Virus record (IMG/VR): IMGVR_UViG_3300037504_000149 | DNA from: a virus | Lineage: Duplodnaviria; Caudoviricetes | Direction: 5' to 3' (one strand) | Length of the DNA stretch: 64,000 bases | Part shown: piece by piece, positions 36,452-64,000 of the stretch | Layout: each line of letters begins with the position of its first letter | How positions within the stretch are numbered: position 1 is the first letter of the stretch | Notes under the pieces: generated by a model | What the model was told of the DNA's origin: nothing | Database searches by the model: none | The model's input: the letters and a program-made list of their open reading frames with translations, nothing else | Position numbers and translations under genes: made by a program

Positions 36452-38170
36452 ATGTCTAGATTTAACAAAACAAAGAAGGATGTAGCCAAGACTAGAAACC
36501 ATGAAGGCGCAGTAGCTTATAACTTTCTTGATCCTAAGCTAAAGTTTATAAATACTGCTGCTGGTATGGGTTTCCTTTCTAGGGGTTTTTACCAAAGCGA
36601 GAAAGAACAATTAGATACATTGCTAGAGATGGTACGCGAAAACCCTGAGTTTGCCGCTACTGTTGCAGCGCATCTTCGTAACGATCACAATTACCGTACT
36701 GTACCTTTAATCATTTTAGCTGCGTTAACAAAAACACACAACGTAAGGAAGTTAGTGCCTTATGTTGTTAAACGCGCAGACGAGATGGCTGAAGTGTTAG
36801 CAATCTACAAGTATCTTTGGGGTAACGATACTTTGGCTAACTATACTAGTAAAGGATTATTAAAGGGCATCAAAGATGTAACTCACAACTTTGATCGTTA
36901 CCAATACGCTAAGTATAACAGAACTAAGGCTGAAGTTACATTACGCGATGTGTTGCGTTTAGTACATCCTCGTCCTAAAGATGAGGAACATGACGCAATC
37001 TTTGAAGAGATCATTAACGGAACACTTGCTGCTCCGCCTACGTGGGAAGTTATCCTTTCTGCGGCAGGTGAGAAGAGTAAAGAAGCTAAGTTAAAGGCTT
37101 TGACTCCACTAGTGGAGAGTATAAGCTCTCGTGGTAAATTACCTAGTGAGTGGCAAAACTTGCCAGCAACACTAACAGATGAGCCTATGACTAAGAGGGA
37201 TGCTTGGAACCTTATCTTATCATTAGGTAAGCGTTTCCCTTATATGGCTGCTCTACGTAACTTGCGTAACATCGTAGATGCGGGTGTTTCTGAAAACAGG
37301 ATCAAGGCATTAGCAGATAGACTAGCTGATCCTTGTCAAGTATCTCGCAGTAAGCAGCTACCTTTCCGGTATCTATCAGCAGCTAAAGCGCTGGTAGGTT
37401 ATGGTGGTTTTGATGGTGATACAGGCGCTTTTGATAGAATTAGCACAGATAGAGTGTCTGAAAGCACTATCAACTACGTCATTGCTAAGTTAGAGGATGC
37501 TGTACGGTTATCTGCGGATAACTTGCCTAAGTACGAGGGTTCTACTGTTATCGGTTGTGATGTTAGTGGTTCTATGGATACTCCTATCTCCCACCATAGC
37601 TCTATTAGGTTGTATGAGATAGGACTACTATTTGGTATACTTACATCTATCAGTAATCCCAACAATGCTGTTGGTGCTTTCGCTGAGTTAGCTGAGTTCT
37701 ACACGGCTGAAAACTTGAAGATGTTTGAAAACCATCCATTAAGAGCTGCTGCTAAAGCATATGATCAGATGGGGCATTTAGGTTACATGACTAATGGGCA
37801 TCTAGTGATTCACGCTTTACTAGATCTATACGAAAAGAAGCGTATAGGTACTGTAGATAGAGTGATTTTATTTACTGATATGCAGCTTTGGAATACGTCT
37901 AGGAGGTTCTCCTATGAAGATACCAAAGGACCACTACAGAAAGCATGGAATGCTTACAAAAAAGTGGCTCCTGACGCTAAGCTATACATCATCAACCTTG
38001 AAGGGTACACTACTTGTCCTGTCAATCCTGGGCGTGATGATGTAGTAAACTTCGCAGGATGGAGTGAAAACATACTCCGTTATATTGCCCAGTATGAAAA
38101 TTCTCGTGATGTCATCGACGAGATTTCTGCGAAGTATCCCTCTGAGAAATTAGTTTCTCGTTTAACTTGA
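36452..38170 (+). CDS. rsr: Ro60-related TROVE + vWA RNA-binding protein
   Basis: TRNHEG..AY, KRADEMAE, FDRYQYAKY, RDVLRLVHPRP, TWEV.LS, YMAALRNLRN, SKQLPFRY; vWA MIDAS DVSGSM, T, TDMQ. Confidence 0.95.
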   Translation: MSRFNKTKKDVAKTRNHEGAVAYNFLDPKLKFINTAAGMGFLSRGFYQSEKEQLDTLLEMVRENPEFAATVAAHLRNDHNYRTVPLIILAALTKTHNVRKLVPYVVKRADEMAEVLAIYKYLWGNDTLANYTSKGLLKGIKDVTHNFDRYQYAKYNRTKAEVTLRDVLRLVHPRPKDEEHDAIFEEIINGTLAAPPTWEVILSAAGEKSKEAKLKALTPLVESISSRGKLPSEWQNLPATLTDEPMTKRDAWNLILSLGKRFPYMAALRNLRNIVDAGVSENRIKALADRLADPCQVSRSKQLPFRYLSAAKALVGYGGFDGDTGAFDRISTDRVSESTINYVIAKLEDAVRLSADNLPKYEGSTVIGCDVSGSMDTPISHHSSIRLYEIGLLFGILTSISNPNNAVGAFAELAEFYTAENLKMFENHPLRAAAKAYDQMGHLGYMTNGHLVIHALLDLYEKKRIGTVDRVILFTDMQLWNTSRRFSYEDTKGPLQKAWNAYKKVAPDAKLYIINLEGYTTCPVNPGRDDVVNFAGWSENILRYIAQYENSRDVIDEISAKYPSEKLVSRLT

Positions 38171-38195
38171 AATTTCCGCTGAAGTGTGCTATACT
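38167..38195 (+). promoter_or_regulatory. sigma70-type promoter for pspA and the RNA cluster
   Basis: TTGAAA-17-TATACT with TG. Confidence 0.75.
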
Positions 38196-38232: not shown

Positions 38233-38949
38233 ATGGCTAAGAAGGGTAACATTTTCGAGCGCATCGGCAACTTGATCAAGGCGACTATGAATCACCTCCT
38301 TGATAAAGCTGAGATGCCCGAGTATATGCTGAAGCAAGCAATCAAGGATATGCGGGATGAACAGCGTGGAATTACCGATGCGCTGCGTACCGTCAAGACG
38401 CAAATGATTCTTAACAAAAGGCAGATGGTTAGGAGTCGTGAAAGTGCTAAGATCGCTAAGGCTTACGTAGAAAAGTATCAGGACAGTCCTGATATCTCTG
38501 AGCGCATTCAAAACAACGTAGAGCTATCAGCAAGCAACTACGCCACACACATTAAAAACGCTCAGATGTGTAAGTCTAATCTGGAAGCTATGCAGGATAA
38601 GTATGATAAGCTTCTAGATGTTAGTGACAAGCTAGCGCTGATGATCGAGAAACTAGAGATGAGTGCTTCTCGATTGATTGCACAGCATAAAGCTGCTCAA
38701 AGCTTGAGAAAGGTTTACGAAGCGATGGCAGGTATCAACTACGGTGAAGCTATGGAAGTCTTCCAGCGGATGGAAGAACGCATCGAGCAGGAAGATGCTA
38801 TGGCTCAAGCCACTGCCGAAGTTGCAAGCGATCCGTCTCTGTCACCTGAGGCTGCTGAATTCATGAGCGGCACTGATGTGGATGGTCAAGTGGCCCTTGA
38901 CAAAATCTATAATGGTGAGGCAGACAGGGAAATTGCTGAACTAGAGTAG
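38233..38949 (+). CDS. pspA: PspA/IM30 (ESCRT-III-like) protein
   Basis: IFERIGNLIKATMNHLLDKAEMPEYMLKQAIKDM; FQRMEERIEQEDAMAQA. Confidence 0.88.
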   Translation: MAKKGNIFERIGNLIKATMNHLLDKAEMPEYMLKQAIKDMRDEQRGITDALRTVKTQMILNKRQMVRSRESAKIAKAYVEKYQDSPDISERIQNNVELSASNYATHIKNAQMCKSNLEAMQDKYDKLLDVSDKLALMIEKLEMSASRLIAQHKAAQSLRKVYEAMAGINYGEAMEVFQRMEERIEQEDAMAQATAEVASDPSLSPEAAEFMSGTDVDGQVALDKIYNGEADREIAELE

Positions 38950-39098: not shown

Positions 39099-39177
39099 AG
39101 TGGTAGCGTCGAAGGACGGAGTTACTTCGATTATAAAAGTCGGCACCCAAACTCTTTCCGCCTACTTACCTACCACT
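39099..39177 (+). ncRNA. Y RNA-like module 1 (short)
   Basis: Terminal stem agtggtag/ctaccact, GTCGAAG motif, GAGTTACTTCG, ACTTAC. Confidence 0.85.
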
Positions 39178-39181
39178 TTAT

Positions 39182-39333
39182 ATGAGAGCGTCGCAGTAAA
39201 GAGTTACTTCGCCTGCTAACTGGTAAGTTCTGGGTTCGAATCCCAGGGTGTACAACAAGTTTCACGAGACTTCGTACATCTAACTCAATGGTAGAGTAAC
39301 TAGAGAATCTCTTTACACCAACTTACCTCTCAT
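39182..39333 (+). ncRNA. yrlA: YrlA-type Y RNA with circularly permuted tRNA domain
   Basis: Stems atgagag/ctctcat and gtaaagag/ctctttac; T arm, acceptor, then D arm in permuted order. Confidence 0.92.
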
Positions 39334-39340
39334 TACCTAA

Positions 39341-39415
39341 ATGCGGACGCCGAAGTAGGGAGTTACTTCGTTTATTGGAAAACGCCTACTTCTCTCTACG
39401 CAACTTGCTTCGCAT
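39341..39415 (+). ncRNA. Y RNA-like module 3 (short)
   Basis: atgcgga/ttcgcat, GCCGAAG, gtagggag/ctctctac, GAGTTACTTCG, ACTTGC. Confidence 0.85.
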
Positions 39416-39419
39416 ACAC

Positions 39420-39487
39420 TGGCTATCGTCGATATGGATAGAGTTATAGTATTCCTCCAACACTAGACTCTTCCAATTACATAGCCA
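39420..39487 (+). ncRNA. Y RNA-like module 4 (divergent, CCTCC apical loop)
   Basis: tggctat/atagcca, CGTCGA, agagtt/gactct, ATTAC. Confidence 0.7.
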
Positions 39488-39494
39488 TCGAGTT

Positions 39495-39537
39495 AGGGTG
39501 AGGTAGACTTTCCTCCTTTCAACTACCTCACCCTCCA
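39495..39537 (+). ncRNA. perfect hairpin with anti-SD loop followed by CCA
   Basis: agggtgaggtag/ctacctcaccct, loop actttcctcctttcaa. Confidence 0.55.
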
Positions 39538-39541
39538 CTAC

Positions 39542-39629
39542 GGGCTAGTGGCGGAATTTTGGTAGACGCGCTGGTCTTAGGAACCAGTGGTCTTCGACCG
39601 TGAGGGTTCGACTCCCTCCTAGCCCACCA
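39542..39629 (+). tRNA. tRNA-Leu(UAG)
   Basis: Cloverleaf, loop CTTAGGA, variable arm, CCA. Confidence 0.93.
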
Positions 39630-41353: not shown

Positions 41354-41438
41354 TGCTGAACTTCTCCTAACCTCCCCGTAGGGGTAGTGGGGATTATAAT
41401 TACTACCCCATTTAAAAGTTTGATTTTGTGTGTATTGT

Positions 41439-41524
41439 GTCGGAGTGTCGAAATGGAAGACGCGGAAGATTCAAAATCTTCTAAAGGTTACTTTATGAGG
41501 ATTCAAATCCCTCTTCCGGCATCA
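41439..41524 (+). pseudogene. degenerate copy of tRNA-Leu(CAA)
   Basis: Near-identical to 19210-19295, with D-stem and T-stem substitutions and ATCA instead of ACCA. Confidence 0.8.
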
Positions 41525-53668: not shown

Positions 53669-54883
53669 ATGTTTACTACTATTGATAAATATGATCTACC
53701 TATCCATATGTGGGTTGATCCTTCCACCCTGCTATCTGAAACTATCAAACAAGCTGCTAATGCTGCTAACCACCCCAGATCTGTAGGTGCAGTAGCTTTA
53801 ATGCCTGACACACATTGTGGTTATGGTGTTCCTATTGGGGCAGTTGTAGCTTATGAAGACGCAGTTGTACCTTATAATGTAGGGTCTGATGCTGGTTGTG
53901 GTATGGGGTATGTAGAAACTAACCTTCAAGTAGATCAAGTTTATGAAAAACTTCCTAATGGGAAAACGGTGTTAGAGGAAATCTATGCCATGATCCAAGA
54001 ACTTATCCCTGTAGGTTTTTCTAAGCACGATCACGCACAATATTGGCAAGGATTCTATAATGCGCCCAAACAGTCTAAAATCATCTCTAAGGAGCTTCCT
54101 AACGCGAAGAGGCAGTTAGGTACTCTTGGGGGAGGAAATCACTTTATAGAGCTTCAGAGGCGTTCTGACGGCAGGCTATGCATCATGCTCCACTCCGGTT
54201 CGCGACACCTTGGTAAAGCTCTTTGTGATTATTACAATAATCTTGCGAACGATCTTACTAGCTACCCACAGTTGAAAAAGCAGAAGCTTGCTTATTTAGA
54301 TGTACATTCAGATGCTGGAAAGGAATATCTTGCGGCTTTGACATTTGCTTTACGTTATGCTCACGAAAACCGTCAGCATATGATGGAAAACGTTAAAAAG
54401 AGTGTTTACGAAATATTCTTTAATAGATTAGGTATTGAGCCTAAATTTACAGATGAAGTAAATATACACCATAACTATACCTCTAAGGAACGTTGGTATG
54501 GTAAAGATGTGTGGGTACACCGTAAAGGCGCTATTTACGTACCTAAAGGTGCACGAGGAATTATACCTGGCTGTATGGGTACTGCTAGCTATATCGTTGA
54601 AGGATTAGGAAATAAGCTAAGTATGGATAGTGCATCTCATGGTGCTGGACGTACTATGGGCCGTGGTGCAGCTACTCGCAATCTCGATCCGAAAGAGCAG
54701 GAACGTAAAATGCAAGGCATTCTTTACCCTAGTTTTGTTAAGTCAAAGAAGAATGACAAAGTAAAGTATGATTTAGGTGAAGCTCCTGATAGCTATAAAG
54801 ACATTGAAGAAGTTATGGACAATCAGACCGATTTGGTAAAAATTGTCCATCGCTTAGAACCTATAGCTGTTCAAAAAGGTTAG
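53669..54883 (+). CDS. rtcB: RtcB RNA 2',3'-cyclic phosphate/5'-OH ligase
   Basis: MPDTHCGYGVPIG, DAGCG, GGGNHFIE, HSGSR, HHNY, HRKGA, SHGAGR, EAPDSYK. Confidence 0.96.
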   Translation: MFTTIDKYDLPIHMWVDPSTLLSETIKQAANAANHPRSVGAVALMPDTHCGYGVPIGAVVAYEDAVVPYNVGSDAGCGMGYVETNLQVDQVYEKLPNGKTVLEEIYAMIQELIPVGFSKHDHAQYWQGFYNAPKQSKIISKELPNAKRQLGTLGGGNHFIELQRRSDGRLCIMLHSGSRHLGKALCDYYNNLANDLTSYPQLKKQKLAYLDVHSDAGKEYLAALTFALRYAHENRQHMMENVKKSVYEIFFNRLGIEPKFTDEVNIHHNYTSKERWYGKDVWVHRKGAIYVPKGARGIIPGCMGTASYIVEGLGNKLSMDSASHGAGRTMGRGAATRNLDPKEQERKMQGILYPSFVKSKKNDKVKYDLGEAPDSYKDIEEVMDNQTDLVKIVHRLEPIAVQKG

Positions 54884-55518
54884 AGATTAACTAACTTACT
54901 AACCTTTTTGATAATGCTCTTATAAGGAAAGTTGTCCCCGGGGTCACCTTTGTGTCGATTAATTGATTCGTGCCCCATGATACCTTCATAATTTTTCCAA
55001 TCTTCATCACCTTTGTGATATTCCCACCCCCATTCAGGATAGGTTGGGGGAATGTCCCACTCTCTACATAAATGTGCTAATAACAAAGTACAGCTATTTA
55101 GCTGTGCTTTTGTGTATTTAGGTGTATATTCTTGGGGGTGGCTTTCTAAAGCTACACCTAGACTAAGGGCGTTATCATCAAACTTAGGTGTACTTGTAGA
55201 ACCAGCATGCCAAGCTTCATATTTATCATCTACTAGTTGATATATAGTACCGTCGTAACCTATAATGTAATGATAGGATACCTTAGAATCTGGGTTGTTT
55301 ATCCAGTCTAACACGTGTCCCATACCATGAATTTCTCCAGCAGAATAATGTACTACTATTTGAGTAGGGTGTCTCGTGGGTGGGGAATCTAAATGAGAAC
55401 CAGTGTAGTTTTTAGTTTCCTTTTTATCCACTATAGTTAAATTATCTAAACCTTCTTTAAGTTGTGTATATTTACTAAACAAACTTTTTAAATTATCTAT
55501 AAGTTTTTTAATCAACAT
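54880..55518 (-). CDS. N-acetylmuramoyl-L-alanine amidase (endolysin)
   Basis: IVVHYS, SYHYII, AWHAG, GH...KGDPG. Confidence 0.92.
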   Translation of the reverse strand: MLIKKLIDNLKSLFSKYTQLKEGLDNLTIVDKKETKNYTGSHLDSPPTRHPTQIVVHYSAGEIHGMGHVLDWINNPDSKVSYHYIIGYDGTIYQLVDDKYEAWHAGSTSTPKFDDNALSLGVALESHPQEYTPKYTKAQLNSCTLLLAHLCREWDIPPTYPEWGWEYHKGDEDWKNYEGIMGHESINRHKGDPGDNFPYKSIIKKVSKLVNL

Positions 55519-63936: not shown

Positions 63937-64000
63937 TAATCTTCCTCGTCCTCATCAAACTCGCCTATACCGGTATCATAAGCGAGTTTGATGAGGACGA

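Follow-up and report, generated by a model that had tools for sequence, protein, structure and literature searches.

What is the role of a short, perfect RNA hairpin that stands directly before a tRNA gene in a phage genome and carries in its loop a sequence resembling the anti-Shine-Dalgarno (anti-SD) tail of 16S rRNA? The hairpin lies in a 64-kb stretch of DNA (64,000 nt, hereafter the window), which is part of a ~230 kb contig from a jumbo phage with 38% GC. An earlier note on this DNA had read the hairpin and the structure preceding it as 16S-tail mimics, acting either as toxin decoys or as translational regulators that bind ribosome-binding sites (RBSs), possibly delivered by the phage Ro protein. 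The features on which it built, namely the 12-bp hairpin, the CCA that follows it, a CCTCC in the preceding structure and the spacing to the tRNA, are all present where it had placed them.

Gene context and predicted transcription

The locus comprises, in order, genes for Ro/TROVE and PspA, a set of Y-RNA-like modules, the 12-bp hairpin, tRNA-Leu(TAG) and tRNA-Ala. The modules are repeated within a 590-nt noncoding stretch after pspA. RtcB and an RlaP-type nucleotidyltransferase are also encoded in the window, away from the hairpin locus. The features of the locus are the following:

36452-38170, + strand: Ro/TROVE gene (Pfam), upstream of the Y-like array and the hairpin
38167-38195, + strand: promoter-like site with an extended -10 (TTGAAA, 17 nt, TGCTATACT), preceding pspA
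38233-38949, + strand: PspA gene, pspA (Pfam), between the Ro gene and the Y-like modules
39099-39415, + strand: three Y-RNA-like modules with GNCG(A/C)AG ... GAGTTACTTCG, one with a tRNA-like domain
39420-39487, + strand: module 4, a long imperfect hairpin (dG -21.9, z -4.4) with the variant Y-like motif GTCGATATG
39495-39534, + strand: perfect 12-bp hairpin, with arms at 39495-39506 and 39523-39534 and a 16-nt loop at 39507-39522
39508-39520, + strand: anti-SD-like loop core CTTTCCTCCTTTC, conserved in the relative L001 (below)
39535-39541, + strand: CCA (39535-39537) and a 4-nt spacer, CTAC, ending at 39541 before tRNA-Leu; probable 3′ end region after an RNase P cut
39542-39629, + strand: tRNA-Leu(TAG), directly 3′ of the hairpin

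A motif scan found no second promoter-like site between 38167-38195 and tRNA-Ala, which points to a single transcript. The site at 38167-38195 would then probably drive pspA, the Y array, the hairpin and the tRNAs together.

The window holds 31 tRNA genes, all on the + strand, and 30 of these encode NCCA followed by a short spacer. The only call without an encoded CCA, at 41438-41523, has a low score (Rfam, 34.8 bits) and may be a degenerate or atypical tRNA-Leu(CAA). We also noticed that the extended -10 motif TGNTATAMT is enriched in the window (27 copies vs 11 expected, 22 of the 27 on the + strand). Its placement 10-25 nt upstream of several tRNA genes suggests that many of the tRNAs in the window have their own promoters.

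A rare hairpin with an anti-SD-like loop

The 5′ arm of the hairpin, AGGGTGAGGTAG (39495-39506), pairs without mismatch to CTACCTCACCCT (39523-39534), closing the loop ACTTTCCTCCTTTCAA. The predicted folding energy is -21.7 kcal/mol (z -4.05), and none of 200 shuffled sequences folds equally well. Perfect Watson-Crick hairpins of at least 11 bp occur only three times in the 64-kb window, compared to a mean of 0.7 in shuffled sequence. The other two lie at 54871-54911 and 63946-64000; one, of 13 bp, overlaps the rtcB stop codon, and the other, of 19 bp, is truncated at the end of the window. When the 55 nt upstream of each of the 31 tRNA genes were compared, only tRNA-Leu was preceded by a stable structure (z -6.0, with all others above -2). 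The exact 10-mer TTCCTCCTTT from the loop has a single + strand copy in the window.

The loop includes CCUCCUUUC, which we take to be the 3′ tail of many bacterial 16S rRNAs. In many bacteria the 16S rRNA ends in ...GAUCACCUCCUUUCU. Compared to this common tail, which may not be that of the host, the 9 nt CCUCCUUUC agree, with UCA replaced by UUU just before them. The longer run UCACCCUCC is found in both this phage and its relative, is one C longer than the 16S UCACCUCC, and differs in register between the two phages. The 5′ arms are rich in G and resemble SD sequences (GGGUGAGG, GGGGAGGG), and the loop, 3′ arm and tail together form a 34-nt tract in the window (39508-39541) without any G; the corresponding tract in the relative (L001:13449-13478) is 30 nt long.

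Two structural readings were rejected on the arrangement of the hairpin itself. An intrinsic terminator would require a U-tract, and no U-run follows the hairpin, nor does the terminator scan make a call; the tails 3′ of the stem read CCACTAC in the window and CACT or CAGAGAAT in the relative. A remnant of 16S helix 45 is at odds with the position of the anti-SD, which here lies in the loop, not after the stem.

The loop is invariant over a covarying stem in one relative

A search of 5.8 billion proteins returned one relative of the Ro protein, P0002, at 64% identity, and nothing else above 37%. P0002 is encoded on a 16-kb NCBI contig, L001, in which the order of the window recurs: Ro, PspA, Y modules, hairpins, tRNA-Leu(TAG) and tRNA-Ala. 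A further contig, L002 from Logan, is identical to the window across the aligned 711 bases. Directly before tRNA-Leu, L001 carries two tandem hairpins:

L001, 13387-13425: hairpin A, 39 nt, 12 bp, with the 15-nt loop GUUUUCCUCCUUUGA
L001, 13435-13474: hairpin B, 40 nt, 14 bp, with the 12-nt loop UUUCCUCCUUUC

In a register-true alignment, all 12 outer pairs are kept in the three sequences (window, hairpin A and hairpin B), with 100% of cells paired, while at 7 of the 12 both partners have changed. Neither any of the 500 shuffles nor any slid register approached this result. The 11-nt loop core TTTCCTCCTTT is identical in the window and both L001 hairpins, and 13 loop nucleotides are identical between the window and hairpin B. 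The remaining noncoding DNA can barely be aligned between window and L001, except for the Y motif GAGTTACTTCG and the tRNAs. The earlier note had named conservation of the loop versus the stem as a way to judge its idea; in this one relative, the loop core is invariant and the stem has been replaced by compensatory changes, which indicates that the loop is under sequence selection. Judged by this comparison, the hairpin is a real, selected RNA element, with the weakness that a single independent relative makes n = 2 lineages.

The tRNA genes of the two phages differ in how far they have diverged. tRNA-Leu is nearly identical (window 39542-39629 vs L001:13479-13564); its body is identical over ~70 nt despite only 64% identity in Ro, and the differences in its acceptor stem are compensated pairs. 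Divergence is far greater in tRNA-Ala. We also considered a mimic of a CRISPR repeat or of a type III antitoxin and rejected both, given the lack of stem conservation and the single copy in the window.

The covarying stem bears on a rival explanation, in which the hairpin serves no more than the processing or stability of the polycistronic Y-RNA/tRNA precursor and its loop sequence does nothing in trans. It might, for instance, be a stem that protects the 3′ side of the Y array, or it might guide RNase P or RNase E. Its placement would suit such a role: with its CCA it ends 4 nt before tRNA-Leu in the window, 4 nt separate the stem end from the tRNA in L001, the stretch from pspA to the tRNAs has no promoter-like site, and the CCA-like ends are like those at other tRNA junctions of the phage. 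However, a pure structure would not need an invariant loop of 11-13 nt on a freely changing stem. Moreover, none of the 30 other tRNAs has such a leader, and the hairpin is duplicated in L001. We consider this explanation quite unlikely.

The loop is complementary to RBSs of the phage

Upstream of 30 of the 59 long ORFs in the window we found GGAG or GAGG, and for most RBSs the predicted duplex with the loop has an energy of -8 to -15 kcal/mol. The complementarity between loop and phage RBSs that the earlier note had claimed thus holds for RBSs of the AAGGAG type. One site stands out:

1481-1492, + strand: candidate target AAAGGAGGAAAG, abutting the ATG of ORF 1493-1801 and complementary to loop nucleotides 39508-39519

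Here the RBS and the loop are perfectly complementary over 12 nt (duplex -18.5 kcal/mol). This is the only + strand site with at least 9 nt of complementarity to the loop, and the RBSs of the other 58 ORFs reach at most 7 nt. By a rough estimate, the probability that such a match arises by chance, as the extension of one strong SD, is a few in a hundred. The hairpin may have a specific target in the RBS of ORF 1493-1801, as far as base pairing can indicate. The 102-aa product of this ORF has no homologs and no family match, and the part of the relative's genome represented by L001 does not extend to it. Its SD, AAAGGAGGAAAG, is unusually long and touches the ATG, and a strong GC hairpin (~1446-1473) lies just upstream.

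The breadth of the complementarity is also a point against a regulatory role, as most RBSs of the phage itself are complementary to the loop and an abundant RNA of this kind could harm the phage unless its targeting is selective. The possibility that the pyrimidine-rich sequence is instead an RBS on the minus strand was rejected: neither phage has a start codon at a usable distance, and all genes are on the + strand.

Comparison with cuckoo RNAs and a proposed action

Hairpins with anti-SD loops are known from the cuckoo RNAs of Alphaproteobacteria, by which we mean here alpha-r14 (Rfam RF02344, ar14), RSs0680 (CcsR1-4) and NfeR1. A cuckoo RNA has 2-4 hairpins side by side, each 24-50 nt long and with a loop of 9-27 nt. 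The stem sequences vary greatly, and the anti-SD-like sequence CCUCCUCCC is present in all loops (PMC4615179). NfeR1 silences mRNAs through redundant anti-SD loops that occlude the RBS (PMC10746234), and CcsR members, transcribed behind a protein gene, are excised from a longer RNA (PMC8034643).

The phage element shares much of this architecture. It is modular, with hairpins of ~40 nt and loops of 12-16 nt. Its stems vary (7 of 12 pairs changed on both sides) over an invariant 11-nt loop core, as do those of cuckoo RNAs. In L001 the modules are in tandem and, with the lengths and loops listed above, fall within the cuckoo range of size and number; the window, in contrast, has a single clean module of 40 nt, and the 68-nt module before it exceeds the size limit. 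Co-transcription behind a protein gene and release from a precursor, as in CcsR (PMC8034643), are likewise predicted for the phage RNA.

The motif and the setting differ. The phage loops read CUUUCCUCCUUUC, UUUUCCUCCUUUG and UUUCCUCCUUUC; the cuckoo motif CCUCCUCCC is absent from them, and CCUCCU is the only part in common. The phage element also sits in a 38% GC jumbo phage, in a cluster of Ro, Y-RNA and tRNA genes and directly before a tRNA. In an E-value scan, the Rfam ar14 model matched L001:13383-13476 at 19.0 bits (gathering score 58.8), with the two CCUCCU loops aligned to two CCUCCUCCC loops of the model, and found no match in the window at E up to 10. The control loci, three-hairpin cuckoo RNAs of the IMG/VR contigs L260 and L265, reach 81 bits with this model, and two-hairpin CCUCCUCCC loci also fall below the threshold, so the score is a weak test by itself. 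Since architecture and evolutionary signature are shared but motif and model score are not, we propose by analogy that the phage element works like a cuckoo RNA without being a member of the family, and that it represents a new variant.

Small RNAs of Firmicutes with C-rich loops, such as the hairpins of S. aureus RNAIII and RsaE/RoxS, also use C/U-rich loops as seeds that pair with the SD (PMC4615179 and general background). Their motifs, however, are short (UCCC or CCCC), they have no sequence or structural homology to the phage hairpin, and an Rfam search of the window gave no match to the RNAIII or RsaE/RoxS families.

We hypothesize that the hairpin is a phage-borne cuckoo-like RNA whose anti-SD loop masks RBSs, and we assign this reading a probability of about 0.45. 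It would be a small trans-acting RNA module of ~40-47 nt, made as part of one predicted transcript with pspA, the Y-RNA array, tRNA-Leu and tRNA-Ala. Cleavage by RNase P where tRNA-Leu begins would release its 3′ side, and the stable stem would display an unpaired loop of 12-16 nt, (C/U)UUUCCUCCUUU(C/G). This loop would then pair with the SD regions of mRNAs and block 30S binding, the action proposed being that of the anti-SD loops of alpha-r14, NfeR1 and CcsR. Of the two roles suggested in the earlier note, the RBS-binding regulator is the one that gains from this comparison, the precedent being cuckoo RNAs and NfeR1 (PMC4615179, PMC10746234).

Descriptions of anti-SD-loop hairpin RNAs to date concern chromosomal regulators of Alphaproteobacteria, and a limited search of the literature found no description of one encoded by a phage. 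A phage version with its own motif would suggest either that the design arose independently or that it travels, and that it serves during infection to control access to ribosomes. Phage tRNA clusters contain many small RNAs without an explanation; for one of these, the phage version would offer a testable function, and it would tie phage Ro/Y-RNA loci to translation control.

Module 4, the Y-RNA-like array and possible binding by proteins

The earlier note had placed a second anti-SD loop at the apex of module 4. The apical loop of this module, AUUCCUCCAAC (11 nt, 39451-39461), does contain CCTCC (39454-39458). The feature is not conserved, as the apical loop of the positional ortholog in L001 (13332-13378) is GAUAUA; module 4 starts with GGCTATCGTCGATATG and its ortholog with AGCTAGGTCGATGTG. 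In addition, CCTCC occurs 59 times on the + strand of the window, and 12 of the 59 copies lie in some predicted hairpin loop. With the pentamer this common and about a fifth of its copies in predicted loops, the module 4 loop alone is weak evidence.

Among known RNAs, module 4 fits YrlB: YrlB RNAs adjoin Ro and the tRNA-like YrlA, and module 4 keeps a Y-like 5′ motif. Its pyrimidine loop, in contrast, is not kept in L001, and the 12-bp hairpin has no Ro-binding motif. The Rfam model of YrlA (RF02553) matches 39197-39318 at 27.4 bits, below its gathering score of 69; the match in L001 is stronger, at 39.5 bits. The Ro-binding helix of YrlA is defined by GNCGAAN0-1G (PMC4201824). Module 4 has a variant of it only, GUCGAUAUG, and in the 12-bp hairpin (39495-39534) we found neither this motif nor a YrlA match. 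The delivery by Ro that the earlier note had envisaged thus finds nothing in its favor here.

The Y-like modules (39099-39415; L001:12640-13330) number four in the window, module 4 included, and ~7 in L001. Each holds CG(A/C/U)AG(U/G)A-(R)GGAG-(N)UACUUCG, which can fold locally into a 5-8-bp hairpin with GGAG in the loop, for example at 39351-39370. This local fold departs from the YrlA model, which has the same strand base-paired to the RNA 3′ end. We considered a kissing interaction of the anti-SD loop with the Y-module GGAG and rejected it, as it would reach 4-7 bp at most and is not available in all modules.

The pyrimidine-rich loop could instead be a site for a protein, such as the KH/S1 domains of PNPase, ribosomal protein S1 or Hfq, which would make the hairpin an accessory "effector" RNA of the Ro/Y-RNA system. 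In both phages the hairpin ends the Ro/Y-RNA array; a phage Ro, together with its Y-like RNAs, is known to bind host PNPase (PMC12135203); and both the window and L001 hairpin B have a G-free tract of about 30-34 nt that takes in loop, 3′ arm and tail. However, the conserved part is exactly the anti-SD core and not an arbitrary pyrimidine run, the hairpin lacks the Ro-binding motif, and in eight other Ro-encoding phages we found no comparable hairpin near Ro. Location and G-free 3′ half make a protein-binding loop in the style of a Y-RNA effector module plausible, though unlikely in our judgment, and pairing with RBSs is the reading we prefer.

The CCA end

The earlier note had described the hairpin as a minihelix ending in CCA. 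Once RNase P cuts at the tRNA, 39535-39541 would probably form the 3′ end region of the upstream RNA, and the CCA-CTAC-tRNA junction resembles the other tRNA junctions of the phage. In all three hairpins a CCA lies at or overlaps the 3′ edge of the stem, with a register that is not constant. In the window the CCA follows directly on 12 bp, which leaves no discriminator base, or UCCA follows on 11 bp. In L001 the last paired C and the following CA form the CCA, and ACCA overlaps the stem, after 10 or 12 bp.

We considered whether this CCA-ended helix could be a tRNA-like minihelix that is handled by, or titrates, RNase P, the CCA-adding enzyme, EF-Tu or a synthetase. A helix of exactly 12 bp followed by CCA does resemble the acceptor/T-arm minihelix of a tRNA, it stands in a cluster of tRNAs that encode CCA, the CCA recurs at the stem edge in all three hairpins, and the YrlA RNA of M. 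smegmatis is cut by RNase P and receives CCA (PMC4201824). The geometry is nonetheless not fixed, with NCCA after 11 bp in the window and after 10 or 12 bp in L001. The 12-bp reading has no discriminator base, the loops of 12-16 nt have no T-loop sequence, and neither ARAGORN nor the Rfam tRNA model makes a call on the hairpin. A minihelix in the functional sense is therefore highly unlikely, and the description in the earlier note is not supported; the CCA is possibly the mark of a processing end, rather than an established tRNA-like feature.

Possible mimicry of the 16S tail

A loop of 16S-like sequence is expected equally if the RNA is a decoy of a factor that recognizes the 16S tail. In one version, the RNA is a 16S 3′-tail mimic that serves as decoy or spare part against attackers of the anti-SD, such as MazF- or RelE-type toxins, in concert with RtcB, RlaP and Ro. 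All three proteins are encoded in the window, and CCUCCUUUC presumably matches the common 16S tail. A 5′ phosphate is what RNase P leaves, whereas RtcB needs a 5′-OH, and this mismatch speaks against the idea. Toxins that remove the anti-SD do exist (PMC12274833, PMC12620021), and RtcB has been reported to re-ligate the cut 16S tail (PMC5416887). However, no anti-SD-removing toxin is known as an anti-phage defense, and the site of MazF-mt11, CACCU, is absent from the loop, which reads UUUCCUCC (PMC12274833). We regard such a mimic as very unlikely, and for the toxin decoy of the earlier note in particular we found nothing in favor.

A broader combination of these ideas is a comparably long shot. 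Here, the phage would carry a copy of the anti-SD tail together with Ro/Y-RNA particles and RtcB/RlaP, with a CCA-like end produced by tRNA processing, and would use it to soak up host factors that target or recognize the 3′ end of 16S rRNA or to reprogram the allocation of ribosomes among host or phage mRNAs. If true, this would be a ribosome-directed counter-defense RNA of an undescribed kind.

Searches for further cases

A DNA search with the RNA region against the phage collection returned matches to tRNA-Leu only. The Ro protein had no relative in IMG/VR, and its best relative in the phage collection has 33% identity. We also scanned viral, metagenome and genome collections for the pattern TTTCCTCCTTT-N15-40-GTGGCGGAA. 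None of the 4 viral, 71 metagenome and 51 genome hits places the motif in a loop closed by more than 7 bp, and no tRNA is found on any of the 4 viral hits. A scan of IMG/VR for tandem motifs gave one DNA repeat and one coding repeat and nothing else.

Classical cuckoo RNAs, with 2-3 hairpins and CCUCCUCCC loops, are present on more than 20 IMG/VR contigs, including L260, L265, L268, L314, L340, L363 and L371, where they may lie within prophages or in host flanks.
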